From Candidatus Heimdallarchaeota archaeon (GTDB taxonomy: Archaea > Asgardarchaeota > Heimdallarchaeia > Heimdallarchaeales > Heimdallarchaeaceae): a stretch of 32,000 nucleotides of DNA. Both the position numbers and the translations under genes were made by a program. The notes under the pieces are model-generated. The model saw nothing but the letters and a program-made list of their open reading frames with translations. It ran no database searches and was not told where the DNA came from. The stretch is from assembly GCA_030668875.1 (NCBI GenBank), contig DAOVER010000016.1:1-32000 (forward strand), read 5' to 3'. Below are positions 322-25,064 of the stretch, piece by piece. The first letter of the stretch is position 1, and each line of letters begins with the position of its first letter.

Positions 322-1617
322 ATGAAGGTTTCTAAAACAGACGTTAAATATCTAGTTTTCGAGGGTGGAGGAGGAAAAGGATTGATTTATTTAAGTGCAA
401 TTCAAGCGCTTGAACGATTAGGTGTGTTATCTTATAACACTGTCAATGTAAACGGAAAAGAAGTTTTTCGTTTAGACAGTAAAAAAATCCATGGTGTTGC
501 TGGAACATCTGTTGGTGGACTTACAGCTTTACTTATTGCGGCTGGTTTTACAACAAAGGAAATATTCAATATTTTAACAAGTAACTTAGACGATAAGATT
601 CTTGATTCAGTCGAATTTGGAAAAATACCTACTGTTCATACTTTAGATAGTCCCAGACACATAATTAGTGACAGACCAATCAACAAAGATAGAATGTTAT
701 TTGACGAATACTGGAACACCATTAAGCACTCTAACAAAAGAACTTTGAGAGATTTGTTTAAACTACCAGTAAAGGCTTTTAAAGAATTCAATATGGGTTT
801 TTTCTCAGGACTAGTCAAATGGTATATGGATTACGAATCAAAAAAAGTAGTAATTAAAGAACCTAAACATGAAGTATTTGGCGTTATTCAAGATATAGCA
901 AAAACAAAAACAACAAAATCCGCTATAGACCTTGTCTTAGAAAACTCAGCTGATAGTATGTATAGCTTGAAATATGATCTCGGACTTTTCTTATCTGAAT
1001 CTTTAAGAGATGCAGTTGATGAATTTATTGAGTTCAAATCCGGGATTAAGAATTGTACTTTTGAGCAATTCTATGATACTTTCAAAATTGATCTTGTTCT
1101 TACTGCATTTGATGTTTCAACTAATGAGGTCTATTACTTCAGAAACAATGAAAGGTGGAAGAACCTCTGTGTTGCTGATGCTTTAAGAATGTCTGTAAGT
1201 ATTCCAATGGTATTCAAACCTGTTGTTATGAAAATTGAAGGTGACAAAATCATAACTGTTACTGATGAAATCTCTTCAGCAAATTATATTGTCGATGGTG
1301 GATTGGGTAATAACTTTCCCATACATGTATTCGATAAGGAAGATTCTGACAGTTTAAACTCTCATGTGTTAGGTTTCAGACTTATAACAGCTAGGCCTTT
1401 CGTAGAAGGGGAAACAACATTTTTTGGTTACCTGGAAAATGTTTTCATTTCTCTACTTAAATTAACTTCAGAATCACAATTAAAAAGAGAGTCTGAGAGA
1501 GATCAAACTATTGCTCTAAACACTGAAGGTATTAACTTCTTAAACTTTACATTTGAGACTATCTCTGAAGAAACACTCACAGAAGCAAGAAAATTAACAT
1601 TTTCGTACTTTGAATGA
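322..1617 (+). CDS. Patatin-like phospholipase (ExoU/VipD-like subgroup), paralogue 1
   Basis: Oxyanion motif FEGGGGKG, nucleophile motif GTSVG (GxSxG), RMSVSIP, and catalytic Asp motif VDGG. RBS GAGGT lies upstream of the ATG. Confidence 0.9.
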   Translation: MKVSKTDVKYLVFEGGGGKGLIYLSAIQALERLGVLSYNTVNVNGKEVFRLDSKKIHGVAGTSVGGLTALLIAAGFTTKEIFNILTSNLDDKILDSVEFGKIPTVHTLDSPRHIISDRPINKDRMLFDEYWNTIKHSNKRTLRDLFKLPVKAFKEFNMGFFSGLVKWYMDYESKKVVIKEPKHEVFGVIQDIAKTKTTKSAIDLVLENSADSMYSLKYDLGLFLSESLRDAVDEFIEFKSGIKNCTFEQFYDTFKIDLVLTAFDVSTNEVYYFRNNERWKNLCVADALRMSVSIPMVFKPVVMKIEGDKIITVTDEISSANYIVDGGLGNNFPIHVFDKEDSDSLNSHVLGFRLITARPFVEGETTFFGYLENVFISLLKLTSESQLKRESERDQTIALNTEGINFLNFTFETISEETLTEARKLTFSYFE

Positions 1618-6446: not shown

Positions 6447-7100
6447 GTGATTGAGATTTTTTCAAGAAAAAAGAATGTCAAAAGTATTAGAGATTTGTTC
6501 ATAGAGACTAGCAGTTTAACCAAAGATGCTTTTGAAACAATGAGGAACGCTGTTCTAGCATATGTGGACGGAAATTTTGATCTTGCTAAAAAGGAATCTG
6601 AAATTACAACTGCAACTGAAAAAAAACAAGACAGGGTAAAGGAAGAGCTTTTTGAAAGGATATTTTCCAGAGAAACAATGGTTTTTTCTAGAACTGATCG
6701 AATTTTAATAATTGAAAACATAGATAAAATCACAGATAAAATCGAAATAGTTGTTAGAAAATTATTGCTTTATCAATTTGATATAAAGGCCCCTCTTAAA
6801 GAAGGAATTAAAGAGCTAGCTAATTTGAACATGCAAATTGGTAACGAAGTTCATAAGATGGTAATAGCTGTTTTAGCTGATTTTGAGAAAGCGAGGGTTC
6901 ATATCACTGAGATCACTAATTTAAGAAGAAACGTTCGCGAAAAACAATGGATTCTCCAGAAGATGAACTATGATTATCAAGAAGATTTTCTAGCTTTCAG
7001 ATATACAGAGACTTTAATCAAATATTTAATGGAAACTGCTGATAGAGCAGAAATTTTTGCTGACCGTGTTTTCATACTTATTAACAAATATGCACTATGA
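6447..7100 (+). CDS. DUF47 / PhoU-like phosphate transport regulator
   Basis: Two helical repeats with EKKQDRVK...IDKITDKIE and ETADRAEIFAD. Lies directly upstream of a PiT gene, the usual pairing. Confidence 0.85.
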   Translation: MIEIFSRKKNVKSIRDLFIETSSLTKDAFETMRNAVLAYVDGNFDLAKKESEITTATEKKQDRVKEELFERIFSRETMVFSRTDRILIIENIDKITDKIEIVVRKLLLYQFDIKAPLKEGIKELANLNMQIGNEVHKMVIAVLADFEKARVHITEITNLRRNVREKQWILQKMNYDYQEDFLAFRYTETLIKYLMETADRAEIFADRVFILINKYAL

Positions 7101-12054: not shown

Positions 12055-12495
12055 GTGATTGCTATGATTACAAAGAAAAAAGTGATGAAAAAATTCGTTA
12101 AAGCTATTTGGGTATTTAATTGGTTCAATTCATGTGGCTTTTCGGAATTGATCCCAGTTGTAGGTTCTAGATGGGATATGGAACGTTTTGGTTTAGTTGC
12201 GGTGAATTCTCCGAGGAAAGCAGATGCTTTGTTTATAGCAGGATATCAAACACCTAAATCAATGAAAAGAGCTCAACAGATATATGAACAAATGCCAAGT
12301 CCGAAATTTGTTTTCGCAATGGGCTCTTGCACTATGACAGGAGGAATGTATTGGGATTCTTATAACACTGTGAAACGAATAGAAGATTATGTTCCCGTTT
12401 TTATGTATATACCAGGTTGTCCCCCAAGACCTGAAGCTATTTTTGATGCAGTACATAAAGTTGTGGTGCATGTTGATGAGTTGCCAGATGAGTGA
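12055..12495 (+). CDS. nuoB: NuoB/MbsJ(MbxJ)-like Fe-S small subunit
   Basis: RWDMERFG, SPRKADAL, MGSC..TGG.YWDSYN, PGCPPRPEA. Only three Cys (27, 92, 122). Probable start is ATG 12064. Confidence 0.88.
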   Translation: MIAMITKKKVMKKFVKAIWVFNWFNSCGFSELIPVVGSRWDMERFGLVAVNSPRKADALFIAGYQTPKSMKRAQQIYEQMPSPKFVFAMGSCTMTGGMYWDSYNTVKRIEDYVPVFMYIPGCPPRPEAIFDAVHKVVVHVDELPDE

Positions 12496-13040
12496 TAAAG
12501 ATGAGTGAAAAAAGTAAACATGATAAGAATCAAACAATTGAAGAAAAGCTAATCGAAGATTTAAAATCGAAATTAGGCACTACGGTTAATTATCAAAAGG
12601 AGAGAAGGTTATGGATGACAATTGATCCTGATCTAATAGTCGAAACATGTACTAAAGCATATGAATTGGGTTTTGAACATCTTTCAACCATCTCTGTTAC
12701 AGATTGGCTAAAAGAGGGAAAGCATGAGGTGACATATCATCTGTGGTCTTATACTCATAATCATTTACTAACAATAAAAACAAAAATTGACAGAAAAAGC
12801 CCTAAAATTTCCTCAATAAACTCAATTTGGGGTGGTAATGCAGAAACATGCGAACGTGAGTGTCATGAGCTATTTGGAGTAAAATTCGAAGGTAATCCTA
12901 ATTTAACGCCACTATTTCTTGAAGATTGGGATGGTCCTCCACCATTTTTGAAGGATTTCAATTGGCGAGAATTTGTTAAGAAGGAAATGTATGACCAGAA
13001 TAATCCAAGAGAAAAAGTGTACTTTGAGGTGAAAAAATGA
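12492..13040 (+). CDS. nuoC: NuoC/MbsK(MbxK)-like 30-kDa subunit
   Basis: HLSTISVTDW, YHLWS, ERECHELFGVKFEGNP, PPFLKDF. Probable start is ATG 12501. Confidence 0.88.
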   Translation: MIKMSEKSKHDKNQTIEEKLIEDLKSKLGTTVNYQKERRLWMTIDPDLIVETCTKAYELGFEHLSTISVTDWLKEGKHEVTYHLWSYTHNHLLTIKTKIDRKSPKISSINSIWGGNAETCERECHELFGVKFEGNPNLTPLFLEDWDGPPPFLKDFNWREFVKKEMYDQNNPREKVYFEVKK

Positions 13041-14155
13041 CTAAGACAAATGAAAATGAAGTTAATAGTGACTTCACTATGAACTTTGGTCCTGCTCATC
13101 CAGGATCAGGAAATTTTGCAATAAAAGTAGAGATGCGTGGAGAACGAGTACTTAAAGCAACTGCAGATCCAGGCTATTTGCACCGCGGGTTTGAAAAATT
13201 GATGGAATACAGGGAACCGATGCAAAACTCTGTTATGTCAGATAGAGTGTGTGTTCTGGAACCTTTGCAATGGAACTTGGTTCATGCTGAAGCAGTTGAT
13301 TATCTTATGGGTTATGAAATACCTGAGAGAGCAAAGTATATCCGAGTGATACTTGCTGAACTTTCTAGAATTCAGTCACATTTCATCTGGTATGCTGTAC
13401 TTTCTTTAGGAACAGGTTTTATGACTGGTTTTAATATCTCTATAGGGTACCGAGATTATATTCTAGATGTTCTAAACCTTATTACTGGTGGAAGAGTATA
13501 TCCGGCAGGTTACATATGTCCTGGAGGGGTTAGAAAAGATTTTCCTGAGAATGCTGAAAATAAGATTCTTGAACTTCTTCCAAAAATTGATTATATGAGA
13601 AAGTTTGCATTAAAAGAGAATCCAGCTTGGCTAGCACGTTTCAAAGATGTTGGAGTATTAACAAAAGAAGAAGCTATTAAGTTTGGAGCAACTGGACCAG
13701 TACTACGTGGAAGTGGTGTTGCTGCAGATGTTAGAAGAGATGATCCATACGAGATTTATGATGAACTAGAATTCAATATTCCAGTTCTGGATAAAGGAGA
13801 TGCTTATTCCCGCTTCAAAGTTGGTATGCTGGAAATAGAAGAGAGTATGAAGATAATCACTCAAGCTATTGATAGATTACCTAAAGGAGAAGTTAGAACA
13901 CCTAACCTCAAACCTATAGTGAAATTTCAAAAAGCTGAAGGAGAGATCTATATCCGTAATGAACTTTCTCGAGGAGAAGGTGCTTTTTACATGGTTGCTA
14001 CTGGTCAGAAAACACCTTATAGAGTGAAAATTCGTGGACCTTCTTTTACCCATATGATTCCGATAGTTGAACATCTATTAACAGATGTAGATTATGCTGA
14101 TGTTCCAGCAATTTATTGGAGCTTGTATCAGTGTCCAGCGGATGTAGACAGGTGA
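13037..14155 (+). CDS. nuoD: NuoD/MbsL(MbxL)-like 49-kDa catalytic subunit, not a [NiFe] large subunit
   Basis: NFGPAHP, GYLHRGFEK, DRVCVLEP, ELSRIQSH, GPVLRGSG, PYRVKIRGPSF, and C-terminal YQCPADVDR. Confidence 0.9.
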   Translation: MTKTNENEVNSDFTMNFGPAHPGSGNFAIKVEMRGERVLKATADPGYLHRGFEKLMEYREPMQNSVMSDRVCVLEPLQWNLVHAEAVDYLMGYEIPERAKYIRVILAELSRIQSHFIWYAVLSLGTGFMTGFNISIGYRDYILDVLNLITGGRVYPAGYICPGGVRKDFPENAENKILELLPKIDYMRKFALKENPAWLARFKDVGVLTKEEAIKFGATGPVLRGSGVAADVRRDDPYEIYDELEFNIPVLDKGDAYSRFKVGMLEIEESMKIITQAIDRLPKGEVRTPNLKPIVKFQKAEGEIYIRNELSRGEGAFYMVATGQKTPYRVKIRGPSFTHMIPIVEHLLTDVDYADVPAIYWSLYQCPADVDR

Positions 14156-14156
14156 G

Positions 14157-14540
14157 ATGATAAAAATGAAGTTAGGTATAATTAAAGAAGTGTTCAAGAA
14201 TGTCTTCACTAAACCAATGACAGTACTTTTTCCTTTTGAAAAAATTGAGATTCCAGAGAGGAATAGAGGAGAACATAGTTTTAACATTGATACATGTATT
14301 TCATGTGGAGCTTGCGCTAGAATCTGCCCGAATCTAGCAATAGAAATGATAGAAGCACCTCAGGAATTAAAGAAGGAGTACCCAAAAACCTATCCACAGA
14401 TAGATCTTGGTAAATGTTGTTTTTGTGCATTATGTGAAGATACATGTCCAAAAGGGTCGATTAAGTTAACAACTAATGTTTTCTTGGCCACCTTTGATAA
14501 AGATGACACAGTGAGAAGTCCTATGTCATGGAATAAGTGA
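14157..14540 (+). CDS. nuoI: NuoI/MbsN(MbxN)-like 2x[4Fe-4S] subunit
   Basis: KPMTVLFPFEK, RGEH, CISCGACARICP, CCFCALCEDTCP. Confidence 0.9.
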   Translation: MIKMKLGIIKEVFKNVFTKPMTVLFPFEKIEIPERNRGEHSFNIDTCISCGACARICPNLAIEMIEAPQELKKEYPKTYPQIDLGKCCFCALCEDTCPKGSIKLTTNVFLATFDKDDTVRSPMSWNK

Positions 14541-14574: not shown

Positions 14575-14653
14575 AATGATAAATTGATTAAGGTGAGTGC
14601 TTGTTCTACTAAGGTGACAAGAAGACAAATGAACATCATAAAGCGTAAAACAT

Positions 14654-15446
14654 CTAAATCTGCTTAAGGACTTTCCATGCTTCAGTTTCTATTTCATATG
14701 CTTCTTTGATTCTGGTTTTAAGTTTTTCAAAGAATGGATCATAATTCTTCACTTCTTTTTTAGCATCTTCAAGAGCTTGTAACATCTCGTTATCAAGCTT
14801 ACTTAGATCTTTTTGGTAGGTTTCTCCAGATTCTTCTTGTATTTTATTGTTCTCTATCATAATTTCACGAAGTTTCTTTAGAGAGGATAATTCATCTGGA
14901 AGAAGAGTTATTGCTACTTCATCCCATTTTTCTTCAGCTTTTGCAAGCTCCAGAGGTCTTTCATAAAGAGCTGTTATGCGATAATTAGAATTTGATTCTC
15001 TTGCAGATTGGAGCATCTTCTTTAGTCTTTCTTTTCTCATTTCTATTGATTCAATATATTTGTCTAAACACTGTATTACATCAGCGAACTCAAGAATATC
15101 TATGTAAGCAATTCCAAGCTCAAAAGGGGATATTGGCTTCGTATTTATTGAAAGAACATCTTTCAACTTCTTGCTTAATTCTGTTCTTCCTGTTGAAGTT
15201 ATTGTGTAGATGCGTCTAGAAGGTTTGCCTGTTGAATGTTTAATAGTGCTTTCTACAAGATTCTTTTGTTCAAGTTTATTCAAAATATAGTAAATTATTC
15301 AAAATATAGTAAATGGAAGAAAAACCCATCTTTGTCCAATATCTCATATTTCGATCTTCTATGATTTTCTCATTTTCATGCACATATAATGAAACTGCTT
15401 TTAGTAATCCAAGTATTGCAACTTCTTTCTCTCCAATCAAAAACAT
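14654..15446 (-). pseudogene. PadR family regulator frameshifted by a 19-bp duplication, with an unrelated-looking C-terminal extension
   Basis: ATG 15446 gives MFLIGEKEVAILGLLK...RNMRYWTKMGFSSIYYILN, then a premature TAA at 15276-15278. Removing one 19-bp copy gives 774 nt and a continuous SIYYILNKLEQKNLVES...RRIYTITSTGR. Confidence 0.85.
15276..15313. repeat. Perfect 19-bp tandem duplication
   Basis: TTATTCAAAATATAGTAAA at 15276-15294 and 15295-15313. Confidence 0.95.
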
Positions 15447-15480
15447 ATTCTAATCACATAATATTCTAATATTAGAATAT
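15445..15480. promoter_or_regulatory. Perfect 20-bp palindrome plus a third half-site, candidate PadR autoregulatory operator
   Basis: ATATTCTAATATTAGAATAT (15461-15480) is its own reverse complement. The half-site ATATTCTAAT recurs at 15445-15454, over the start codon. Confidence 0.65.
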
Positions 15481-15587
15481 ATACGCATTTTCGTTTGATT
15501 GTCATTAACAAATTCTTCAATTAAACACGATAAATAAAAATCGCAAGTTGCGAATAATTTTTTGAAATCACTAACTCTATGCAGTTT

Positions 15588-16898
15588 CTAAATATCATTA
15601 AAATATTCAAGAGTCTTATCTCTAGACTTTGCTATTATTTCTTCTGGAAAGTGTTCAAAGGTGAAATCAAATATCTTCAAATCCCCTGAATCCAAAGTTA
15701 TTGTTTGATCTCTTTCACTGGGAAATCTTAACTGTAATATTGTTGCATTTTTAAGCAAAGTATAAAGCGTACTTTCAGTAAAATCAACAAAGGAAAGAAT
15801 CTCATTAGGTTTAGTCTTACTAGCAGGAACAAGCGTAAAACCTAGTACGTACCTATTCAATTCATCCAAATTAAGTTGATCAAATGCATGAATTGGGAAG
15901 TTATCCACAACACCACCATCTACCATAAAACTAGCTGATTGAAGATTACCTGTAAATGATTTTATTTTTTTATCTGTTTCTTCAAATAGAACAGGTTTGA
16001 ATACGTAAGGTACGCTAATTGACATTCTAACAGCATCAGCAACGCAAAGATCTTGCCATTTTCCTCTATTTCTGAAATAATAAGCTTCTTTTGTATTTAG
16101 ACAAACAGCAGTAATGACTAAATCAATGTTAAATTCCTTAGCAAACTGCTTAAATGTGCAATTTCTTATTCCCGACTTGTTTTCTATAAGATCATCAAAG
16201 ATTTGTCTTGCCTTTGCACCTAGATAGAAACCATATTGATACTTTAAACTATTTAGGGAATGTAGAGGGTCTTTTAATATTGTCGAAGCAGCTGTTGATG
16301 GTGTTTCTGATTTAAGAATTCCTTGAATTGGAAGCAAATCACCCTCATTTAGATGAGGTTTTGAATTATACTTTTTGACTTCAAAATTCAAATAACCCTT
16401 TAAAAGCAAAGCAAAAAACTGATAACTGATGTTTTTCAACGATTTACGAGGAATGTCCAAGAAACCTTTTAAAGATTTTTCATCTGATTGTAAATAATCT
16501 ATCCAAGAATTTCTCATGTAGCTTTCTATATCATCAAATCTGGGATCTTTTGCAATACAAGTAGGATTCTTTTTTGTATAGATTGTTGGAAAATAACCAA
16601 ATTCTACTGTATCAAGAATATTCTTTCCAAAGTTAGAAATAATAATTTTCTGAATTTCAGTGGAAGTATATCCACAAGCAACAAGCAAAGCTGAAAGTGA
16701 ACCAACAGATGTCCCAGCTATACCTTTAATTTTGTTTGAATCCAATCGTATGGAGGTTTGGTCACCTTTTTTTTCAGTTATATGAGTAATTATATCTAAC
16801 TCTTCCAAAGCTTGAAGTGCCCCAAGATAGGTCACTCCTTTACCACCACCACCCTCAAACGCTAAATATTGAACTTCTTCTTTTGATACCTTTGTCAT
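15588..16898 (-). CDS. Patatin-like phospholipase, paralogue 2
   Basis: FEGGGGKG, GTSVG, RMSISVP, VDGG. Collinear with the 322-1617 protein. Confidence 0.9.
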   Translation of the reverse strand: MTKVSKEEVQYLAFEGGGGKGVTYLGALQALEELDIITHITEKKGDQTSIRLDSNKIKGIAGTSVGSLSALLVACGYTSTEIQKIIISNFGKNILDTVEFGYFPTIYTKKNPTCIAKDPRFDDIESYMRNSWIDYLQSDEKSLKGFLDIPRKSLKNISYQFFALLLKGYLNFEVKKYNSKPHLNEGDLLPIQGILKSETPSTAASTILKDPLHSLNSLKYQYGFYLGAKARQIFDDLIENKSGIRNCTFKQFAKEFNIDLVITAVCLNTKEAYYFRNRGKWQDLCVADAVRMSISVPYVFKPVLFEETDKKIKSFTGNLQSASFMVDGGVVDNFPIHAFDQLNLDELNRYVLGFTLVPASKTKPNEILSFVDFTESTLYTLLKNATILQLRFPSERDQTITLDSGDLKIFDFTFEHFPEEIIAKSRDKTLEYFNDI

Positions 16899-16931
16899 TT
16901 AATCACCATAATTTTTATTATTGTTTGTAAT

Positions 16932-17507
16932 TTAAATTGAATCTATAACTGATTTGATGTATTTACTTCGGCTTTCATGGTCTTGGATAGAGAATCCAAA
17001 CAGTTTTACAAAATCCCTAATGAAAAGCAAAGGATAAAAAAGATCTGCATTTAATTTGACCAATTTAAATTGAATAATTTCTCCTTCATTTATATTTGTG
17101 ATTTCTTTAATAGTTCGAACTAAGTACTTATTGGTTTCATGCAAAGATAATTCGAGATTACTGTCAAAATCTATAGATAAAAATAATTTGTTGCTCATAA
17201 TCGAAATTACTCCAGGATTATTCACCATGTATTCAACTAAAGAATAAGCCCACTTGAGAAGACGTTTTTTTGGGGTAATTTGAGTATCTTTTAGTATATT
17301 TTCAAATTCAGCATACTTTTTACTGAATTTCTTCTCTATTTCTTGAATCAATTTCCTTTTTGTTCCAAAATAGTAGTTAACAGATGCGATATTAACATCC
17401 GCATTTAAAACAATCTCCCTTATTGTGAAATCTAGATTTCCCTTTTCAGCAATAAGTTTAAGTGTTGTATTGATGATTTTATCCTTTTTTGAAATTTTTT
17501 CCTTCAA
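16932..17507 (-). CDS. TetR/AcrR family transcriptional regulator
   Basis: N-terminal HTH: KIINTTLKLIAEKG..FTIREIVLNADVNIASVNYYFGTK..L. Confidence 0.92.
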   Translation of the reverse strand: MKEKISKKDKIINTTLKLIAEKGNLDFTIREIVLNADVNIASVNYYFGTKRKLIQEIEKKFSKKYAEFENILKDTQITPKKRLLKWAYSLVEYMVNNPGVISIMSNKLFLSIDFDSNLELSLHETNKYLVRTIKEITNINEGEIIQFKLVKLNADLFYPLLFIRDFVKLFGFSIQDHESRSKYIKSVIDSI

Positions 17508-17719
17508 GGTTAATTCTCCATTAAATTAAATATCTAGAACTTAATCAAGTTTATGTCTGAACCAATCACTTCTTGAGCTTGTTCAAATATACTGTTAACC
17601 TCTAATATTATATGTTTTCTCTACAGTCTTGATTTTTTTTTACCAATTATTATTGCAATGAAAACAATTATGATATGACACATAACTCAATAAAAACAGA
17701 TATTTAAGACTTATTTTTG

Positions 17720-17757
17720 AAACAACATATTTAAATAGTTGTTTGAAACATGTGTTT
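17720..17757 (+). promoter_or_regulatory. TATA box embedded in an inverted repeat, plus a downstream AAACA-N2-TGTTT operator candidate
   Basis: AAACAAC-a-TATTTAAATA-GTTGTTT at 17720-17744 and AAACA-TG-TGTTT at 17746-17757, in the divergent TetR / radical SAM intergenic region. Confidence 0.55.
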
Positions 17758-19203
17758 ATATCCTCAAACGTGATGGTAATGATAAATGTAAAAAACAAAA
17801 TTAATGGTGCTTTTTTAAATATTGCAACTAGATTTGCAATAAGGAATCCAGAGAAAAATATTCCAAAGATGGTTAATGTCTTTGCACGATTTGCAGCAAA
17901 TTCTGATCAAAAGCAGGCGATCCAATCTATTCAAAATGAAGACAAACCAATGAATAAGTTTCTTATAGATTCCTTTAAAAATATAAATCCAAAGACTGTG
18001 AAACTATTTGTACGTAATCTAGGGGTAAACACATTTATGACTGGAGTAGAAACTTCCCGCAAAGTGATGAGAGAACACCAGTGCAATGTTCCTCTAGCTA
18101 TTCTGATGGATCCAACATCCTCCTGTAATCTGAACTGTACAGGGTGTTGGGCTGCAGATTATGAGAAAACAGATAATTTAAGTTTTGATTTAATGGATAG
18201 GATCATACAAGAAGGAAAAGAACTAGGGATTTATTGGTACCTATATTCAGGTGGAGAACCAACAATCAGAAAGAATGATTTATTAAAATTGGCGAAAAAA
18301 CATCAAGACTGCTTCTTCTTGGCATTTACAAATGCAACTCTGGTAGATGAAGAATTCGCTAAAGCTTTAGCTAATGTTGGAAATTTCACTTTAGCAATAA
18401 GTGTGGAGGGTTTTGAAGAAGAAACGGATTTTCGTCGAGGTAAGGGTACTTATCAAAAGGTAATAAACGCCATGACCCTGCTTAAGAAACATCAAGTCAT
18501 GTTTGGATTTTCTTCTTGTTACCATAATAAGAATGTGGACATTATGGGATCAGAGAAATTTATCGATTATATGATTGAGATGGGAGCAAGTTATGGATGG
18601 CTTTTTACATATATACCAATTGGAAAAGATGCTAAAACTGAACTAATGAGTACTCCAGAACAAAGAGAATTTATGTTTAATCAAGTTCGAAAATTCAGAG
18701 AAACAAAACCTGTTTTCTTAATTGATTTTTGGAATGATGGAGACTATGCGAGAGGGTGTATCGCTGGCGGAAGAAGTTATCTTCATATTAATGCAAATGG
18801 AGATGTTGAACCATGTGCCTTTATCCATTATTCAAATGTTAATATCAAAGATGTAAGCTTATTGGAATCTTTGAAATCGCCATTGTTCAAGCAGTTTAAC
18901 ATACATCAACCATTCAATAAAAACTATTTACGCGTATGTCCACTTCTTGATGTTCCTGATAAATTGAAAGAAATGGTGCATGAATCAAATGCTCGATCTA
19001 CACATATGATTGATGTAGAATCTGTTGATAATCTTACTGACAAATGTCAAAAAGCAGCTAAGAATTGGGCACCAGTAGCTAATAGAATTCGATGTGAATC
19101 TAACAAGTTATCAAATTTTGTAAATTCGAAACCACCTCGATACTGGGATAAAAATTGGGATGGTACTGAGGAAGTTTGGGAGGATTCCAATAAAGATCAT
19201 TAA
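17743..19203 (+). CDS. Radical SAM protein with C-terminal SPASM/twitch-like domain
   Basis: MDPTSSCNLNCTGCWA (CxxxCxxC), SGGEP, FTNATL, SVEG, then GCIAGGRSYLHINANGDVEPC...RVCP. Probable start is ATG 17779. Confidence 0.92.
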   Translation: MKHVFISSNVMVMINVKNKINGAFLNIATRFAIRNPEKNIPKMVNVFARFAANSDQKQAIQSIQNEDKPMNKFLIDSFKNINPKTVKLFVRNLGVNTFMTGVETSRKVMREHQCNVPLAILMDPTSSCNLNCTGCWAADYEKTDNLSFDLMDRIIQEGKELGIYWYLYSGGEPTIRKNDLLKLAKKHQDCFFLAFTNATLVDEEFAKALANVGNFTLAISVEGFEEETDFRRGKGTYQKVINAMTLLKKHQVMFGFSSCYHNKNVDIMGSEKFIDYMIEMGASYGWLFTYIPIGKDAKTELMSTPEQREFMFNQVRKFRETKPVFLIDFWNDGDYARGCIAGGRSYLHINANGDVEPCAFIHYSNVNIKDVSLLESLKSPLFKQFNIHQPFNKNYLRVCPLLDVPDKLKEMVHESNARSTHMIDVESVDNLTDKCQKAAKNWAPVANRIRCESNKLSNFVNSKPPRYWDKNWDGTEEVWEDSNKDH

Positions 19204-19218
19204 ATATGAGGAATACTA

Positions 19219-19305
19219 ATGTTAGACAGATTAAAAGCAAAAACAAAGCAAGTTATAGAATCTTTAAAATCAAGAATTAAGAGAGAGAAAAAAAGCAATC
19301 AGTAG
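19219..19305 (+). CDS. Unannotated 28-aa basic small ORF
   Basis: GAGG RBS, then ATG 19219: MLDRLKAKTKQVIESLKSRIKREKKSNQ*. It starts 15 nt after the radical SAM stop. Confidence 0.45.
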   Translation: MLDRLKAKTKQVIESLKSRIKREKKSNQ

Positions 19306-19373
19306 CAAAAGTTGGATATTAGTGAATTACTGATAGTTCTTTCATTTTTTTTTTATTAAATTAACATTAAGAA

Positions 19374-20426
19374 GTGGTCGTAATGGAACCTGAAACAGTT
19401 GGAAGAAATAAACCTATAGACAAGACAACAACTATCGTAAAAATATCGTTATTAGAGAAGATAATTCAAGAGTTTAGAGATGGGTATTTTCACATTTTTT
19501 TCGCTATTTCTTATCTACTTTTTGCTATTGTTTTACTAGTTATTAATGGGGACGGATTTTTGGGTTTTTCCTTATTATCAGGAATTGTTTTTATTTCAAT
19601 TGTGGTTCTTTCTGCTGTTATTTATTTGTTAAAACCCAATAACTCTAAATCCCCTATTACCTTATTAATTAATAGTCTTCCTTTTTTCATAATTTGGTGT
19701 ACCTATGAGTTAATGGCAAATGTAAAAGAGCACTTAATCTATCCACGCGTTTATACAGAAGTCTTCTATAACTTAGAGATGAAACTATTTGGGTGGATTT
19801 TTGGCGGGATGACTCCTAACCACTGTTTCCATATGACCTTCAATTCTGTTTATACAGATATTATATTTGGGGGCGTTTATTTGTTACATGCTTTGATTCC
19901 AATGGTTTTTGGGTTATACTTATATATAAGAAATGATCGGGAAAATCTCAAATTCCTTGCAATAACTTTCTACACTGCGACATTACTCTCTTTTATACTT
20001 TTTATGATTTTTCCTTCAGCAGCTCCTTGGTATATTGATCAATATGGTTTTACTCAACCTGATATTGCAGTAGATTATACACAAGATATAACAGCTGGTT
20101 TAGGAAGAATCGACGAGATTATAGGAGTGAATCTTTTTTCGTGGTATTATGGAACATTTGAACAAAACTCTTTTGCAGCATTCCCAAGTGTTCATGCTGT
20201 TTACGCATTATCAGCAACCCTTTGTATTCGTCAAAAATGGAAAAAATCACTATATTTAACGATTCCTTATTGTCTAGCCATATTTCTAGGAGCTATCTAT
20301 TTCAATCACCATTTTATTGTCGATATTTTATGTGGTATTATGATATCAACGCTTAGTCATATTGTAGCATTATGTTTAAAAAAGAACATTAGTATATTCC
20401 CTAAGCTGAAATTTCTCAAGTCATAG
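19374..20426 (+). CDS. PAP2-superfamily Aur1/inositolphosphoceramide-synthase-like membrane protein
   Basis: Multi-TM, with FPSAAPWY, FAAFPSVH and YFNHHFIVD motifs. Probable start is ATG 19383. Confidence 0.85.
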   Translation: MVVMEPETVGRNKPIDKTTTIVKISLLEKIIQEFRDGYFHIFFAISYLLFAIVLLVINGDGFLGFSLLSGIVFISIVVLSAVIYLLKPNNSKSPITLLINSLPFFIIWCTYELMANVKEHLIYPRVYTEVFYNLEMKLFGWIFGGMTPNHCFHMTFNSVYTDIIFGGVYLLHALIPMVFGLYLYIRNDRENLKFLAITFYTATLLSFILFMIFPSAAPWYIDQYGFTQPDIAVDYTQDITAGLGRIDEIIGVNLFSWYYGTFEQNSFAAFPSVHAVYALSATLCIRQKWKKSLYLTIPYCLAIFLGAIYFNHHFIVDILCGIMISTLSHIVALCLKKNISIFPKLKFLKS

Positions 20427-20596
20427 ATGCTAATATAAAATATGATTATCCTTCGATAAGATATAGCAAGACTCTCATTTGAACAATACACTTTGTTAAA
20501 TTTCTGATAAAATACATTGATTATATATCATTAAAATTTTTAGTTGACCAACCTTATTTAACCGAATCGTTTAAACTAAAAAATGGAAAAAAATAC

Positions 20597-20644
20597 TTAC
20601 ATATCTGTAAATATATTTCCAGAAATATGGAAATGTTTTTATAA
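20597..20644 (+). promoter_or_regulatory. Overlapping inverted repeats followed by a TATA box (probable leaderless promoter)
   Basis: TTAC-N6-GTAA (20597-20610), ATATTTC-CA-GAAATAT (20613-20628), TTTCCA-N6-TGGAAA (20616-20633), TTTATAA (20638-20644), ATG at 20666. Confidence 0.5.
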
Positions 20645-20665
20645 CTGCTAAAACTTTTCTACTCA

Positions 20666-21529
20666 ATGAAACCTTCTCTTAATTGGAAAGAATTAGAGAT
20701 ACTTAAGATTGTTAATTTGAAGAAGGAAAAGTATAAAACTGCAATAATTAAAGAATTACAGACTATTTTTCCTTTTTTAAAAGATAAACCCTCTAGTTCT
20801 TTCTATCTAATGTTCGACAGATTAAAAAAAGAAGGGCTGATATCAATTGATAAACATGAAGGTGCAGGTCATAAAGCTTTTGTGAATGTTACAGACGAAG
20901 GTCGCATGGTTATAACAGAATCAATGAAAACAGCTTTTGATTATTTTATTCCAACAATAGTTGACAGGTTCATTATTGAAATCGGGATGATTATTGAAGA
21001 AAACTTTAAGAATTTTGATAAGGGAAATCTAGCCATTGTAGCACCAGATATGATCTTATCTAATCCAAGCCTTCAACGACTATTCACCCAAAAGATTCTT
21101 GAGAGTGATATTAGACCATTTAACCTTCAGATGTCTTTTTCCAGTTATAGCAGCTTGGAGGGATATGAAACCATAAAAACTACATACGACGAAATACCTC
21201 TCAAAGATGATTTTTTCTCACTCATAATCTCTTTCTTTTCTCTTGGCTTTCATGAACCAAAATATTACCAAAAACTGCTCAGAGAATATCAACGAGTGCT
21301 TAAGAAGAAGGGTCGGATTATGTTAGTTGAAGCAAGATACTTTTATAGTATACTTGAACAAAGCATGATTTCATTTATTGGGGATTTGAACCCCATAAAA
21401 AAGGATTTGAACATAGATTCAAATCAATTTCGACGAGAGGATTTTCAAGAATTAATGCAAGATATATTTCCTAAATCGAGTTTTGTAGGCGATTTTGCTG
21501 AGATTCTTGTTTGCATAGGGGAAAAATGA
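20666..21529 (+). CDS. PadR-like winged HTH fused to a degenerate class I methyltransferase-like domain
   Basis: N-terminus ILKIV...SSSFYLMFDRLKKEGLI...VTDEG. C-terminus EIPLKDDFFSLIISFFSL...LREYQRVLKKKGRIMLVE. No GxGxG SAM-binding motif is visible. Confidence 0.7.
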   Translation: MKPSLNWKELEILKIVNLKKEKYKTAIIKELQTIFPFLKDKPSSSFYLMFDRLKKEGLISIDKHEGAGHKAFVNVTDEGRMVITESMKTAFDYFIPTIVDRFIIEIGMIIEENFKNFDKGNLAIVAPDMILSNPSLQRLFTQKILESDIRPFNLQMSFSSYSSLEGYETIKTTYDEIPLKDDFFSLIISFFSLGFHEPKYYQKLLREYQRVLKKKGRIMLVEARYFYSILEQSMISFIGDLNPIKKDLNIDSNQFRREDFQELMQDIFPKSSFVGDFAEILVCIGEK

Positions 21530-21538
21530 GGTGAAATT

Positions 21539-24500
21539 TTGAAAAATAACAACAACAAAAAGAATGGTAAATCTGTATTCGCAAAAATCGCGGAAATTAC
21601 AGAAAAATATCGATGGTTTATCCTAATTACTTGGATAGTACTTGCATCAGTAGCAGCACCTTGGGCTATAAATATAGGTGATAAACTTGAAACTGACGAA
21701 ACAGCGTTTCTTGGTGAAACACCAGCAGGTGTAGGATTGGATATCTTAGCGGATAAATTTCCTGAATTTAGCAGTAGCTTTGTAGCAGTGATTGATGGGT
21801 TAGAAGAATCAGACTTAACATCACAGAACTTTACGAATTTTGTGAAGAGTTTAGAAAGCACTTTTGAAGATGAATCAGCCTATCCTTATATTGATTCAAT
21901 TCTATCAATTTATTCGGTACTAGAGGATTTACAGACATTTTACAATGTTACTTTAGATGAGGTACAGACTTTTCTAAATGTTACATTTACTGAACAAATT
22001 CCTTTGATGTATGATTATATCAGCTTAGCAAATGAAACAACAAAAGGATTGATAGATTTATTAGAACAAGTTCCTCTTTACTACTTATTTGCTTGGTCTG
22101 ATTTCTCTAAATTCATTTATTATACAAATAATCAAACAAATGCATATTCAAACGGTTTTTTCAATTCAACTGAATATGTACTTATGAATAATTGGACTAT
22201 GTTTGATAATACTACTTTAGATATGTATCTTATGTCAACTCTTCCATTAGCTCCTGTTATTCCAGCGATGCTAGCAGATCCATATTTGGCAGATAACATG
22301 ACTTCAGTTTTAGCATTTCAAGTTGTGAATGCTTCAATGTCAGCAATGTATAATGAATCAGAATACGGAATTCCTTACTTAAACTCGCTAAGTTATAATT
22401 ATCTCTTGCTTTTGAATGCAACGTTTGATACTATCCGTTTATCAAGTTTCCTTCCACAAAATGCTTTCTTTGATGATTATTATGCAACTTCTGATCCGAT
22501 TTTGACTGATTTTCAACAAGGAATGCTTTCACAACTAAACGTGATAGGTAATCTTTCTACATTAAAACCAAGTATGAAGACTCAATCAGGACAGCTATTA
22601 GTTGATTTGCTACCTCCAGGTTCTGAAGAGCAATCACTTCTCCAAATGGCATATATGTTAAGAGAAGAAAATTATGAAACAAGCATTATTTATAAACAGA
22701 CATTAATCAGTTCAATAACTCAAGCTGTAAATGCTTCATTTTCAACGTTGCTAGAAAATTTCACAATAAGTGGTTTTGATTTTGATCCAGAGATGTTCTT
22801 CAAAGATTTTGATGTAGAAGGAATGGTAACTTCGCTTTATGAAACACCATTATTTATGCTAGATATTGTTACTACAATGATGATACAGCAATTTTCACTT
22901 CTCGTTAATCAGAAAATAGCTCAGATCATGCCTTATCCTACCATAGTAACTGATTTACCTGCAGATATTTACTACAGTTTAATAAGTTCAGATAATTCAA
23001 CTATGGTTATTGCTATATTTCTGTCAGACGTGGATGAATCAACAGATTTGGGAATCTACACACCAGATATTAGAGCAAAAATAGCTGAAATAAAAAGTGA
23101 TACAGATGTAACTATCGACATACATCTGACTGGGACGCTTGCATTATTGTATGATTTAGAATATGTAATGGCTTCTGATTTTGAAAATACTGATATAACG
23201 TCTATACTTTTCGTTTTAGGAGTGCTAGTTATTGTGTTCTTGTCACCATTTACACCTTTCGTTCCTTTAATAGCAATTGGTATGGGTTTAATGATTGTTA
23301 ATGCATTGTTCATGTTAATGTCGAACGTTATTATGATGTCTTCGTATACCGTAATCATTACGTCTATAGTAATGATGGGAGCAGGTGTAGATTATTGCAT
23401 TTTCATGATTTTTCGTTATAAAGAACAACGAAGAAAAGGTGATACAAAAGAAAAATCAATTGTAGAAACAACAAAGAAAATTGGCGAATCAGTAATTACA
23501 TCTGGTATAACAGTTATGATTGGTTTCGGAGCTTTATTATTCTCTAAGTTTTCCTTGCTGAGATTAATGGGATTAGGTCCACTATTGGGTATAGCTATTT
23601 CTTTACTTATAGCACTAACTTTGATTCCTGTTATTTTACATCTGCTTGGAGACAAGATTTATTGGCCAAGAATGGGGAGAAATGGTAAGAAAGAGAAGAA
23701 GGAGAAGAAGGAGAAAAAAGATGTTGATGAAAGTAAACCAGAAAAAAGCAATCCTTTGTTAGAGAAAGTGACACACTTTACTCTGAAGCATCCTCTAGTT
23801 GTTATTGGTCTTTTCTTACTCATTTCCAGTCCATTAGTGTATTTTGGTGTGACTGGTGAGCAGAGCTATGATATAACTTCAACACTTCCTAGTTCAATGG
23901 ATAGTATAGCTGGATCAAACATACTAGCAAATGAATTTGTTGTAAGTGAATTGCAACCAATTCAAGTACTCTTGATATGGAATGAATCCTTAACTCTTAA
24001 TGAATCAACAGGTCTTCCTGAAGAAGCAAAGTTAATTGCGCTAGAAAGCCTTATATCTCATATTGTAACGAACTATGACAATGTTTCTAACATTCATACA
24101 ATAACGCGTCCTAATGGTGAATATATCCCACCAGAGATGATAGATACTATCCACTTAGAACAAATGCAACGATACATTTCGGATGATAATACCACAATAA
24201 TGTTGATGATATATCTGGAACTTGACCCATTTGGAAAAGAAGCTTTAGATGTAGCACAAGACCTGATCACAAATCTAGGTACAGCAGTTTCAGAAGAACT
24301 GGCTTTTCAGGATACAGTAATTTTCATTACTGGGATGACCGCACTTTACTCAGAACTTAACAATATGATGGTTGTAGATACTCCAATAATAATAACATTT
24401 ACAGTTGTAGGTATTTTCCTCGTATTATTATTTCTACTCGGTTCAGTTTTCACACCTATTAGGTTAGAATTAACTATACTATTATCGGTTTTCATCAGTT

Positions 24501-24946
24501 TAGGTGCAACAAATTTGGTTTTCTATCATGGTTTAGGACAACCTATAGTCTGGTTTCTACCTGTATTGTTGTTTGTAACAATGTTTGGTCTTGGAATGGA
24601 TTTTGATATTCTTCTTGTTTCTCGAATCAAAGAAGAGATAGAGAAAGGAGCTACTGACAAGGAAGCAACATTCAAAGCTGTAAAAAGTACTTCAAAAATG
24701 ATTCTAAGCGCTGGATTTATTATGTCTGCATCATTCTTCTCATTGATGTTGTCACAGTTATGGCCGTTAAAAATCATAGGATTTGCTATAGGATTCGCAG
24801 TAATTTTGGATGCTACAGTTGTTCGACTGTTTCTTGTACCTGCTCTAATGATGGTGCTTAAGAAACTAAATTGGTGGCCATATTGGAGAATATCAAAGGA
24901 AACAGTTATGAAAAATTACGCAAAGAACAATAATAAAAAAGACTAA
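21539..24946 (+). CDS. MMPL/RND family transporter with a large extracellular insertion
   Basis: Two repeats with GAGVDYCIFMIFRYKE and GLGMDFDILLVSRIKEE, GESVITSGITV, and LDATVVRLFLVPALM. TTG start after AGGTGA. Confidence 0.92.
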   Translation: MKNNNNKKNGKSVFAKIAEITEKYRWFILITWIVLASVAAPWAINIGDKLETDETAFLGETPAGVGLDILADKFPEFSSSFVAVIDGLEESDLTSQNFTNFVKSLESTFEDESAYPYIDSILSIYSVLEDLQTFYNVTLDEVQTFLNVTFTEQIPLMYDYISLANETTKGLIDLLEQVPLYYLFAWSDFSKFIYYTNNQTNAYSNGFFNSTEYVLMNNWTMFDNTTLDMYLMSTLPLAPVIPAMLADPYLADNMTSVLAFQVVNASMSAMYNESEYGIPYLNSLSYNYLLLLNATFDTIRLSSFLPQNAFFDDYYATSDPILTDFQQGMLSQLNVIGNLSTLKPSMKTQSGQLLVDLLPPGSEEQSLLQMAYMLREENYETSIIYKQTLISSITQAVNASFSTLLENFTISGFDFDPEMFFKDFDVEGMVTSLYETPLFMLDIVTTMMIQQFSLLVNQKIAQIMPYPTIVTDLPADIYYSLISSDNSTMVIAIFLSDVDESTDLGIYTPDIRAKIAEIKSDTDVTIDIHLTGTLALLYDLEYVMASDFENTDITSILFVLGVLVIVFLSPFTPFVPLIAIGMGLMIVNALFMLMSNVIMMSSYTVIITSIVMMGAGVDYCIFMIFRYKEQRRKGDTKEKSIVETTKKIGESVITSGITVMIGFGALLFSKFSLLRLMGLGPLLGIAISLLIALTLIPVILHLLGDKIYWPRMGRNGKKEKKEKKEKKDVDESKPEKSNPLLEKVTHFTLKHPLVVIGLFLLISSPLVYFGVTGEQSYDITSTLPSSMDSIAGSNILANEFVVSELQPIQVLLIWNESLTLNESTGLPEEAKLIALESLISHIVTNYDNVSNIHTITRPNGEYIPPEMIDTIHLEQMQRYISDDNTTIMLMIYLELDPFGKEALDVAQDLITNLGTAVSEELAFQDTVIFITGMTALYSELNNMMVVDTPIIITFTVVGIFLVLLFLLGSVFTPIRLELTILLSVFISLGATNLVFYHGLGQPIVWFLPVLLFVTMFGLGMDFDILLVSRIKEEIEKGATDKEATFKAVKSTSKMILSAGFIMSASFFSLMLSQLWPLKIIGFAIGFAVILDATVVRLFLVPALMMVLKKLNWWPYWRISKETVMKNYAKNNNKKD

Positions 24947-25064
24947 CTTAACGTGTTAGTCTCGTTCCTTTTTTGTAATCAATTTTCTCTTTTGTTATTA
25001 TTCAGTTTCTTAGTATTCACAAAACTAGAAAGTAATAAAAACAGAAGAAGGTAACTCCTTCCTC

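Follow-up and report, generated by a model that had tools for sequence, protein, structure and literature searches.

A 32,000-nucleotide stretch of DNA from Candidatus Heimdallarchaeota archaeon (contig DAOVER010000016.1, positions 1 to 32,000; hereafter the window) carries a radical S-adenosylmethionine (SAM) gene whose product is a genuine member of the bacterial membrane-spanning-lipid synthase (Mss) family. This membership had been proposed in an earlier reading made from the letters of the DNA, and every sequence measure that could be checked agreed with it. By homology, the enzyme most likely couples acyl or alkyl lipid chains tail to tail. We consider the overall explanation a likely one: an Mss-family enzyme that joins lipid tails was gained from bacteria and is carried in an Asgard cassette.

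Mss was defined by anaerobic expression of Thermoanaerobacter ethanolicus WP_129545148.1 and Thermotoga maritima Tmari_0825 (Sahonero-Canavesi et al. 2022, PMC13159169), and its discoverers took E ≤ 1e-50 together with at least 30% identity as their measure of homology (PMC13159169). With the T. maritima Mss (AGL49750), whose activity is proven by experiment, the window protein shares 34% identity over 427 residues at E 5e-98, values that lie within these limits. The T. maritima protein has the accessions AAD35906.1 and AGL49750.1, the latter named as T. maritima Mss in a 2026 preprint. Identity rises to 46% with the T. wiegelii orthologue (E 3e-152) and to 56% over 445 residues with the Sporanaerobacter acetigenes Mss (UniProt A0A1M5Z5M3). 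The latter and its counterpart from Keratinibaculum paraultunense (A0A4R3KZK4) are both named as Mss by the discoverers' group (PMC13274423, supplement 2), and both were recovered here as family members. Compared with each other, two of these bacterial reference proteins are only 33% identical.

The family behaves as a set of orthologues across bacterial genomes. Thermoanaerobacter and Caldanaerobacter genomes each have one strong homologue (47–48% identity, E about 1e-140), the next radical SAM gene lying at 1e-22, and one homologue per genome was likewise found in 28 of the 31 Tissierellales genomes searched (6/6 and 22/25) and in all 16 Thermotoga-family genomes. The Thermoanaerobacter and Caldanaerobacter homologues cluster with those of T. 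wiegelii, T. siderophilus, T. thermohydrosulfuricus and C. subterraneus and with a fragment from T. ethanolicus JW200, which is the species set in Fig. 4A of Sahonero-Canavesi et al. 2022 (PMC13159169). In the reciprocal comparison that the sequence-only reading had called for, the T. maritima, S. acetigenes and T. wiegelii proteins matched strongly only two proteins of the archaeal genome, the window copy and a second copy on contig C47, with the next match at E 1e-12 or weaker. Reciprocal best matches therefore hold.

Other identities for the protein were rejected. NCBIfam has no model for the Mss family, nor is the family named in the PDB, and all 60 NCBIfam models that matched the window protein scored far under their cut-offs, the best being NirJ2 (94 of 500 bits), with AhbD at 79 of 500, PqqE at 64 of 381 and anSME at 52 of 349. 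A heme or cofactor enzyme (NirJ, AhbC/D, PqqE) or a peptide maturase (anSME, StsB, PapB, sactipeptide) is disfavoured by these scores, and we found neither an RRE domain nor a precursor peptide gene for the window protein. The earlier reading had given clustering away from Mss, for instance with heme or peptide maturases, as part of what would overturn it; the comparisons came out for Mss. That reading had also judged the protein to be unlike archaeal Tes, and rightly so. Full-length homology to MJ0619/MA_1486 is lacking: the sequence match to the Tes structure 7TOL reaches only E 2.4e-5 and is confined to the core (residues 112–235), whereas the Asgard Tes of Ca. Harpocratesius repetitus matches it at E 6.5e-107. 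The two extra auxiliary [4Fe-4S] clusters of the Tes type were likewise rejected for this protein, which has only three conserved cysteines beyond CxxxCxxC.

The architecture of the protein bears out most of what had been read from its motifs. Pfam Radical_SAM (PF04055) covers residues 124–251 (E 8.5e-20) of an intact open reading frame, with the CxxxCxxC motif at C128/C132/C135 and the auxiliary GCIAGG...EPC...CP region at C339/C358/C399. These six are the only invariant cysteines in a 103-member family alignment, and all 61 positions conserved at ≥95% across the family, the six cysteines included, are kept in the window protein. The SPASM label that had been attached to it stands in part. 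Pfam SPASM passes its cut-off at residues 339–399 (26.5 versus 21.5 bits), but the seven-cysteine motif CX9-15GX4C ... CX2CX5CX3C ... C is absent, and since the auxiliary region has only three conserved cysteines it is better described as a twitch-like or partial SPASM site. An AlphaFold2 model built from 55 sequences (pLDDT 88.7, pTM 0.89) places five helices at residues 22–112, ahead of the radical SAM barrel, in agreement with the long N-terminal helical extension noted earlier. This extension of about 100 residues is also conserved among bacterial family members; it is basic and amphipathic, and the protein has no transmembrane helix. The solved folds nearest to the model are SkfB (Z 25.9), SuiB (25.5) and anSME (24.9), all of the SPASM/twitch radical SAM fold. 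Tes 7TOL ranked 29th, at Z 18.3 over 250 aligned residues (VIA-align), and Tes was not among the first 50 Foldseek matches to the model.

A phylogeny placed the window protein inside the Mss family. All Asgard sequences formed one clade (SH-aLRT 97), nested in a clade (89) made up mainly of Bacillota and including the S. acetigenes and K. paraultunense Mss. Thermoanaerobacter and Atopobiaceae fell just outside the Bacillota-dominated clade, and T. maritima and candidate phyla lay on the far side, with the Asgard clade sitting between the Thermotoga and Thermoanaerobacter branches. At 0.18, the Asgard stem is shorter than the inner bacterial branches (about 1.0–1.5). Clostridial producers of diabolic acids were left out of the tree, so omega versus omega-1 regiochemistry cannot be read from it. 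The nearest relatives, at 77–78% identity, come from two same-genus metagenome-assembled genomes (MAGs) labelled Heimdallarchaeota (G058 and G060), followed by Harpocratesius (74%) and Promethearchaeota MAGs (53–66%). Beyond Asgard there are thousands of bacterial proteins at 55–63% identity and lower, mainly from Clostridia and Tissierellia. Among close relatives of the host the gene is rare: it is present in 3 of 24 same-genus genomes and in none of 16 other genomes of the order. With a nested clade, a short stem and patchy occurrence, transfer from bacteria to Asgard archaea is the economical reading. The gene most likely passed from Bacillota-like bacteria to an Asgard ancestor and then spread among Asgard archaea, and the acquisition by an archaeon that had been suggested from the sequence is thus supported by both tree and distribution.

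The genes around the archaeal copies differ from those around the bacterial ones. A four-gene core, comprising a patatin-like phospholipase, a TetR-family regulator divergent from Mss, Mss itself and a PAP2 protein, occurs only in Asgard copies and is present twice in this genome. It recurs on contig C47, where Mss is 76% identical to the window copy and adjoins a DegV gene, and at L001, L002 and L228, the last a JGI metagenome contig. TetR adjoins Mss in all Asgard copies examined (61–63% identity); Harpocratesius retains TetR and Mss only. Among about 148 bacterial Mss loci, none showed the link to patatin or PAP2, and nine had a DegV gene 1–6 kb from Mss. Most database proteins that resemble the cassette's PAP2 and patatin come from bacteria, which we record only as a lead. 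Another observation concerns a bacterial locus: on contig C27 of the Thermotogota MAG G035 (L192/L193), a second, distantly related radical SAM gene (497 aa) adjoins the Mss homologue, in a region broken by a run of N.

The window cassette lies within an inserted island. Two same-genus genomes (G067:C73 and G053:C328) lack the block between about 14590 and 25040: the sequences on either side of it, 85–86% identical to the window at the DNA level, are directly joined there; the 10.5-kb block is therefore an insertion. At least five same-genus MAGs contain sequences that match the island flanks at 75–86% DNA identity. The island borders in the window showed no integrase, no tRNA and no terminal repeats, whether direct or inverted. 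On contig C47, by comparison, a 235-nt segment including the 3′ end of degV occurs three times in direct orientation (L217:5108-5342, 6800-7034 and 12361-12595). Copies 1 and 2 flank a formate/nitrite transporter gene, and copies 2 and 3 the second Mss cassette, an arrangement that suggests serial, site-specific integration at one site.

We surveyed lipid genes elsewhere in the genome for the likely substrate. No Tes was found in this genome (best E 3.4e-7), and 40 relatives gave two weak matches, in agreement with a report that most Heimdallarchaeia and Hodarchaeia are without tes (PMC12042123). The Tes candidates that were checked, namely the two SPASM genes other than Mss and further long radical SAM genes, were rejected; they proved to be a tungsten-cofactor-type maturase, SkfB/PqqE-like, Elp3, MiaB-like and B12-radical SAM proteins and peptide maturases. 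No GGGPS matching PF01884 or TIGR01768 was detected in 12 same-genus genomes, this one included (72–92% complete), although each of these models scored in every one of the four archaeal control genomes. Of the 12 same-genus genomes, 11 have CarS-like genes, and this one has three copies. A glycerol-1-phosphate (G1P) dehydrogenase is encoded on contig C42 (L225:5608-6678; NF002022, 405 bits versus a cut-off of 413). Its gene adjoins that of a 1394-residue Ger/PlsA-like protein (L225:1323-5507) with two BcrAD_BadFG domains, DUF2229 and HGD-D, an architecture tied to alkyl-ether formation by the discoverers of Mss. A bacterial-type ester-to-ether reductase thus stands beside an archaeal backbone enzyme.

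Several genes for handling fatty acids were also found. PlsY is encoded in 24 of 24 genomes of the order, with three copies here. PlsC-type acyltransferases (PF01553) were absent from all 15 same-genus genomes, this one included, and present in 8 of 8 genomes (G076-G083) of two sister families of the order. No FakA-like kinase was found in the genome, the Dak2 matches being short and DhaL-like, and there are at least ten paralogues of the fatty-acid-binding, FakB-like DegV, spread across many contigs, as well as three patatins. The sole ketoacyl synthase found in the genome belongs to a 3362-residue megasynthase resembling type-I fatty-acid and polyketide synthases (FAS/PKS), with NMO-type ER, KS, AT, ACP, KR, DH and C-terminal PPTase domains (L226:3378-13466, equal to contig C39:7377-17465); its gene immediately follows one for a carboxyltransferase. 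Together these genes make fatty-acyl or alkyl chains the favoured substrate but stop short of proving a complete pathway.

In the mechanism that we propose, the CxxxCxxC [4Fe-4S] cluster would cleave SAM to a 5′-deoxyadenosyl radical, which would abstract hydrogen from a lipid tail at its terminal or penultimate carbon. Until a second tail has been activated, the radical is probably held or passed on by the three-cysteine auxiliary cluster, as has been shown for Tes and postulated for Mss (PMC13459092). A carbon–carbon bond would then join two lipids across the bilayer, giving a membrane-spanning lipid of the diabolic or iso-diabolic-acid type. The substrates would most likely be the fatty-acyl chains of glycerolipids, or alkyl chains reduced by Ger, plausibly supplied by the FAS-I-like megasynthase, the three PlsY, the many DegV and the patatins. 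The cassette is probably kept repressed by TetR as long as no lipid ligand is present. A bolder version, which we think unlikely, is that the acquired Mss cassettes, the Ger-like reductase, the three PlsY and the FAS-I-like megasynthase together make fatty-acid-derived, possibly ether-linked membrane-spanning lipids, akin to branched glycerol dialkyl glycerol tetraethers (GDGTs), in a genus without Tes or detectable GGGPS. If so, a membrane of partly bacterial type would exist in a present-day Asgard archaeon, and the branched tetraether biomarkers found in sediments could have an archaeal source.

Several points weigh against lipid-tail coupling by a bacterially derived Mss. Catalysis by the window protein, like that of every archaeal member, is deduced from homology, and membrane-spanning lipids are not always detected where an Mss homologue is carried (PMC13159169). 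The T. ethanolicus Mss, WP_129545148.1, was represented in our comparisons by orthologues from sister species. The tree was a quick IQ-TREE run of 103 rows with midpoint rooting, and its Asgard clade includes three rows (P0014-P0016) that have no assigned source. With neither a PlsC-type acyltransferase nor a FakA-like kinase found, we cannot trace a complete route to diacyl lipids. Finally, the host genome is a MAG, 92% complete with an estimated contamination of 4.4%.

This last figure, and the fact that outside Asgard the nearest relatives come from Clostridia and Tissierellia (55–63% identity), could suggest that the contig is bacterial contamination of an archaeal bin. We find this hardly credible, since a 74%-identical copy lies inside the closed, single-contig 4.36-Mb genome of Harpocratesius and the flanks of the island are conserved in same-genus genomes. 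The window, moreover, has an even, AT-rich composition (30–36% G+C), and the Mss cassette was found in independent assemblies and in several sediment and cold-seep runs; no RNA dataset was among the public runs listed for it. A different question is whether an Mss by descent has taken on another role, such as radical modification of a lipid or non-lipid substrate in a module that scavenges or detoxifies foreign bacterial lipids, with the patatin freeing acyl chains and the MMPL transporter exporting products. None of about 148 bacterial loci has the Asgard cassette partners, so the working context of the enzyme has changed; its nearest solved folds are peptide and protein maturases, and the imperfect match in Clostridia between Mss homologues and membrane-spanning lipids (PMC13159169) would fit as well. 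We nevertheless give this reading only a small chance. None of the family's highly conserved positions has been lost, full-length identity to lipid-linked Mss is high, and the maturase, heme and cofactor models, together with the search for a precursor peptide or RRE, offered nothing in its favour.

Alternatively, the enzyme might join the iso-branched ends of two phytanyl tails to give GDGT-like tetraethers, standing in for Tes. The genome has no Tes orthologue, while Harpocratesius has a clear one; three CarS-like genes and a G1P dehydrogenase are present; and, to judge from the published chemistry, Mss of the iso-diabolic type would couple the omega carbons of iso-branched chains, which locally resemble phytanyl ends. 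Harpocratesius, however, has Tes and Mss together, the partners patatin, DegV and PAP2 indicate acyl-ester lipids, and the failure to detect GGGPS leaves the supply of archaeol uncertain. The closest named enzymes, at 56% identity, belong to bacteria with fatty-acid lipids. Moreover, a gene found in three of 24 genomes of the genus and in none of 16 others from the order has to be counted as accessory, not as what the lineage uses in place of Tes, and we regard this alternative as distinctly unlikely. Coupling of fatty-acyl or alkyl tails by an acquired Mss remains our preferred reading.

Asgard and DPANN genomes have already been reported to hold Mss homologues, and also Ger (Sahonero-Canavesi et al. 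2022, PMC13159169), a correction to the sequence-only reading. The advance made here is therefore one of context and testability, not of kind. New are the verification by sequence comparison of Mss membership for this lineage, the three-cysteine auxiliary site as a feature of the Mss family, and an Asgard-specific, duplicated, mobile cassette in a genus without Tes or detectable GGGPS. Heimdall-group archaea have been inferred to be without Tes and hence to have simple bilayers (PMC12042123), and how isoprenoid ether lipids were swapped for bacterial-type fatty-acid lipids in the archaeal host of eukaryotes is an open problem. A Tes-less archaeon with two bacterial tail-coupling genes and with Ger, PlsY and a megasynthase provides a concrete, clonable test case, and a mobile lipid-gene cassette of apparent bacterial origin bears on how archaeal and bacterial membranes came to be mixed. 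The same cassette bears on the sources of the branched GDGTs that serve as palaeoclimate proxies in anoxic sediments.

The longest frame of the Mss gene is a single intact open reading frame on the plus strand, window 17743-19203, of 486 codons counted from a TTG. The true start is probably the ATG at 17779, because the identical database protein has 474 residues and because homologue alignments all open at residue 10–13. The putative promoter element TTTAAATA would, in addition, place TTG 17743 within the promoter. This TATA-like box is bracketed by an inverted repeat (Table 1), and related repeats containing TTGTTTGAAAC also occur upstream of the Mss gene at L002 and L228. The TTGTTTGAAAC motif is not enriched over chance in the window (3 matches versus 2.3 expected), so the candidate TetR operator is a weak lead. 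Among the neighbouring products, the PAP2_3 protein has phosphoinositol dihydroceramide synthase as its best NCBIfam model, at 126 bits against a cut-off of 480, and the transporter is assigned by NCBIfam to MMPL/HAE3, with weaker matches to HpnN and MmpL3. At the left of the island, an exact tandem duplication of a 19-nt unit covers 15276-15313, at the start of the PadR-like gene, and may be a regulator binding site. Just beyond the left border, at 12055-14540, four co-oriented genes encode the 20-, 30- and 49-kDa subunits and a ferredoxin of a membrane-bound [NiFe] hydrogenase or complex-I-like module.

Table 1. Positions in the window of the Mss gene, its upstream elements, the accessory island and neighbouring genes.
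Feature	Position	Strand	Basis and remarks
Second patatin-like phospholipase of the window	322..1617	+	Pfam; 44% identical to the cassette patatin (tblastn); outside the island
Accessory island, about 10.5 kb (PadR, patatin, TetR, Mss, PAP2, PadR-methyltransferase, MMPL)	14590..25040		Approximate borders; absent from same-genus genomes
PadR-like regulator, left island edge	14654..15283	-	Pfam PadR
Patatin-like phospholipase	15588..16898	-	Pfam Patatin, E 1.7e-22; downstream of TetR
TetR-family regulator	16932..17507	-	Pfam TetR_N; divergent from the Mss gene
Inverted repeat, 14-nt arms and 11-nt spacer	17713..17751		Brackets the TATA-like box; candidate TetR operator
TTTAAATA, archaeal TATA-box-like element (putative)	17730..17737	+	Read from the sequence; ~40 nt upstream of the probable start codon
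Mss-family radical SAM gene	17779..19203	+	Open reading frame, Pfam, identity to named and proven Mss; 474 aa from ATG 17779
PAP2_3 membrane protein (Aur1 / inositol-phosphoceramide-synthase-like head-group transferase)	19374..20426	+	Pfam PAP2_3, E 1.3e-19; downstream of Mss
PadR-like DNA-binding domain fused to a methyltransferase domain	20666..21529	+	Pfam PadR and Methyltransf_11
MMPL/HAE3-type RND transporter (lipid-exporter family), 1135 aa	21539..24946	+	Pfam MMPL, E 6e-88

Of the characterized enzymes, the T. maritima Mss (Tmari_0825, AGL49750), proven as a diabolic-acid synthase in anaerobic E. coli, is collinear with the window protein over ~430 residues and shares its N-terminal helices, CxxxCxxC motif and GC..G...EPC...CP region. 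It differs in lying on the far side of the tree, in coupling the omega-1 carbons of straight C16 chains, and in working in a bacterial host with ester- and ether-linked fatty-acid lipids and no patatin/TetR/PAP2 cassette. The Mss of S. acetigenes and K. paraultunense, which produce iso-diabolic-acid tetraesters, are closer, having the same six cysteines and falling in the same large clade as the window protein. The Thermoanaerobacter and Caldanaerobacter orthologues of T. ethanolicus Mss share the six cysteines and align over their full length (46% identity for T. wiegelii), with a tree position just outside that clade. These bacterial Mss occur as a single copy per genome, whereas the window protein is archaeal, is present in two copies, is extended at its C terminus by an acidic stretch of ~30 residues and belongs to an Asgard-specific cassette.

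Tes (GDGT-MAS; MJ0619, PDB 7TOL/7TOM) resembles Mss in chemistry, as a radical SAM enzyme that forms a Csp3–Csp3 bond between lipid tails, with auxiliary Fe–S chemistry proposed for both (PMC13459092) and a common barrel core. It differs in having three [4Fe-4S] clusters, against the three auxiliary cysteines of the Mss family, and in its N- and C-terminal domains. SkfB, SuiB and anSMEcpe are the best structural matches (~300 residues), and SkfB is also the best PDB sequence match of the window protein (E 4.6e-7), but identity to these three is 17–20% and residues 22–112, the helical extension shared with bacterial Mss, are unmatched in them.

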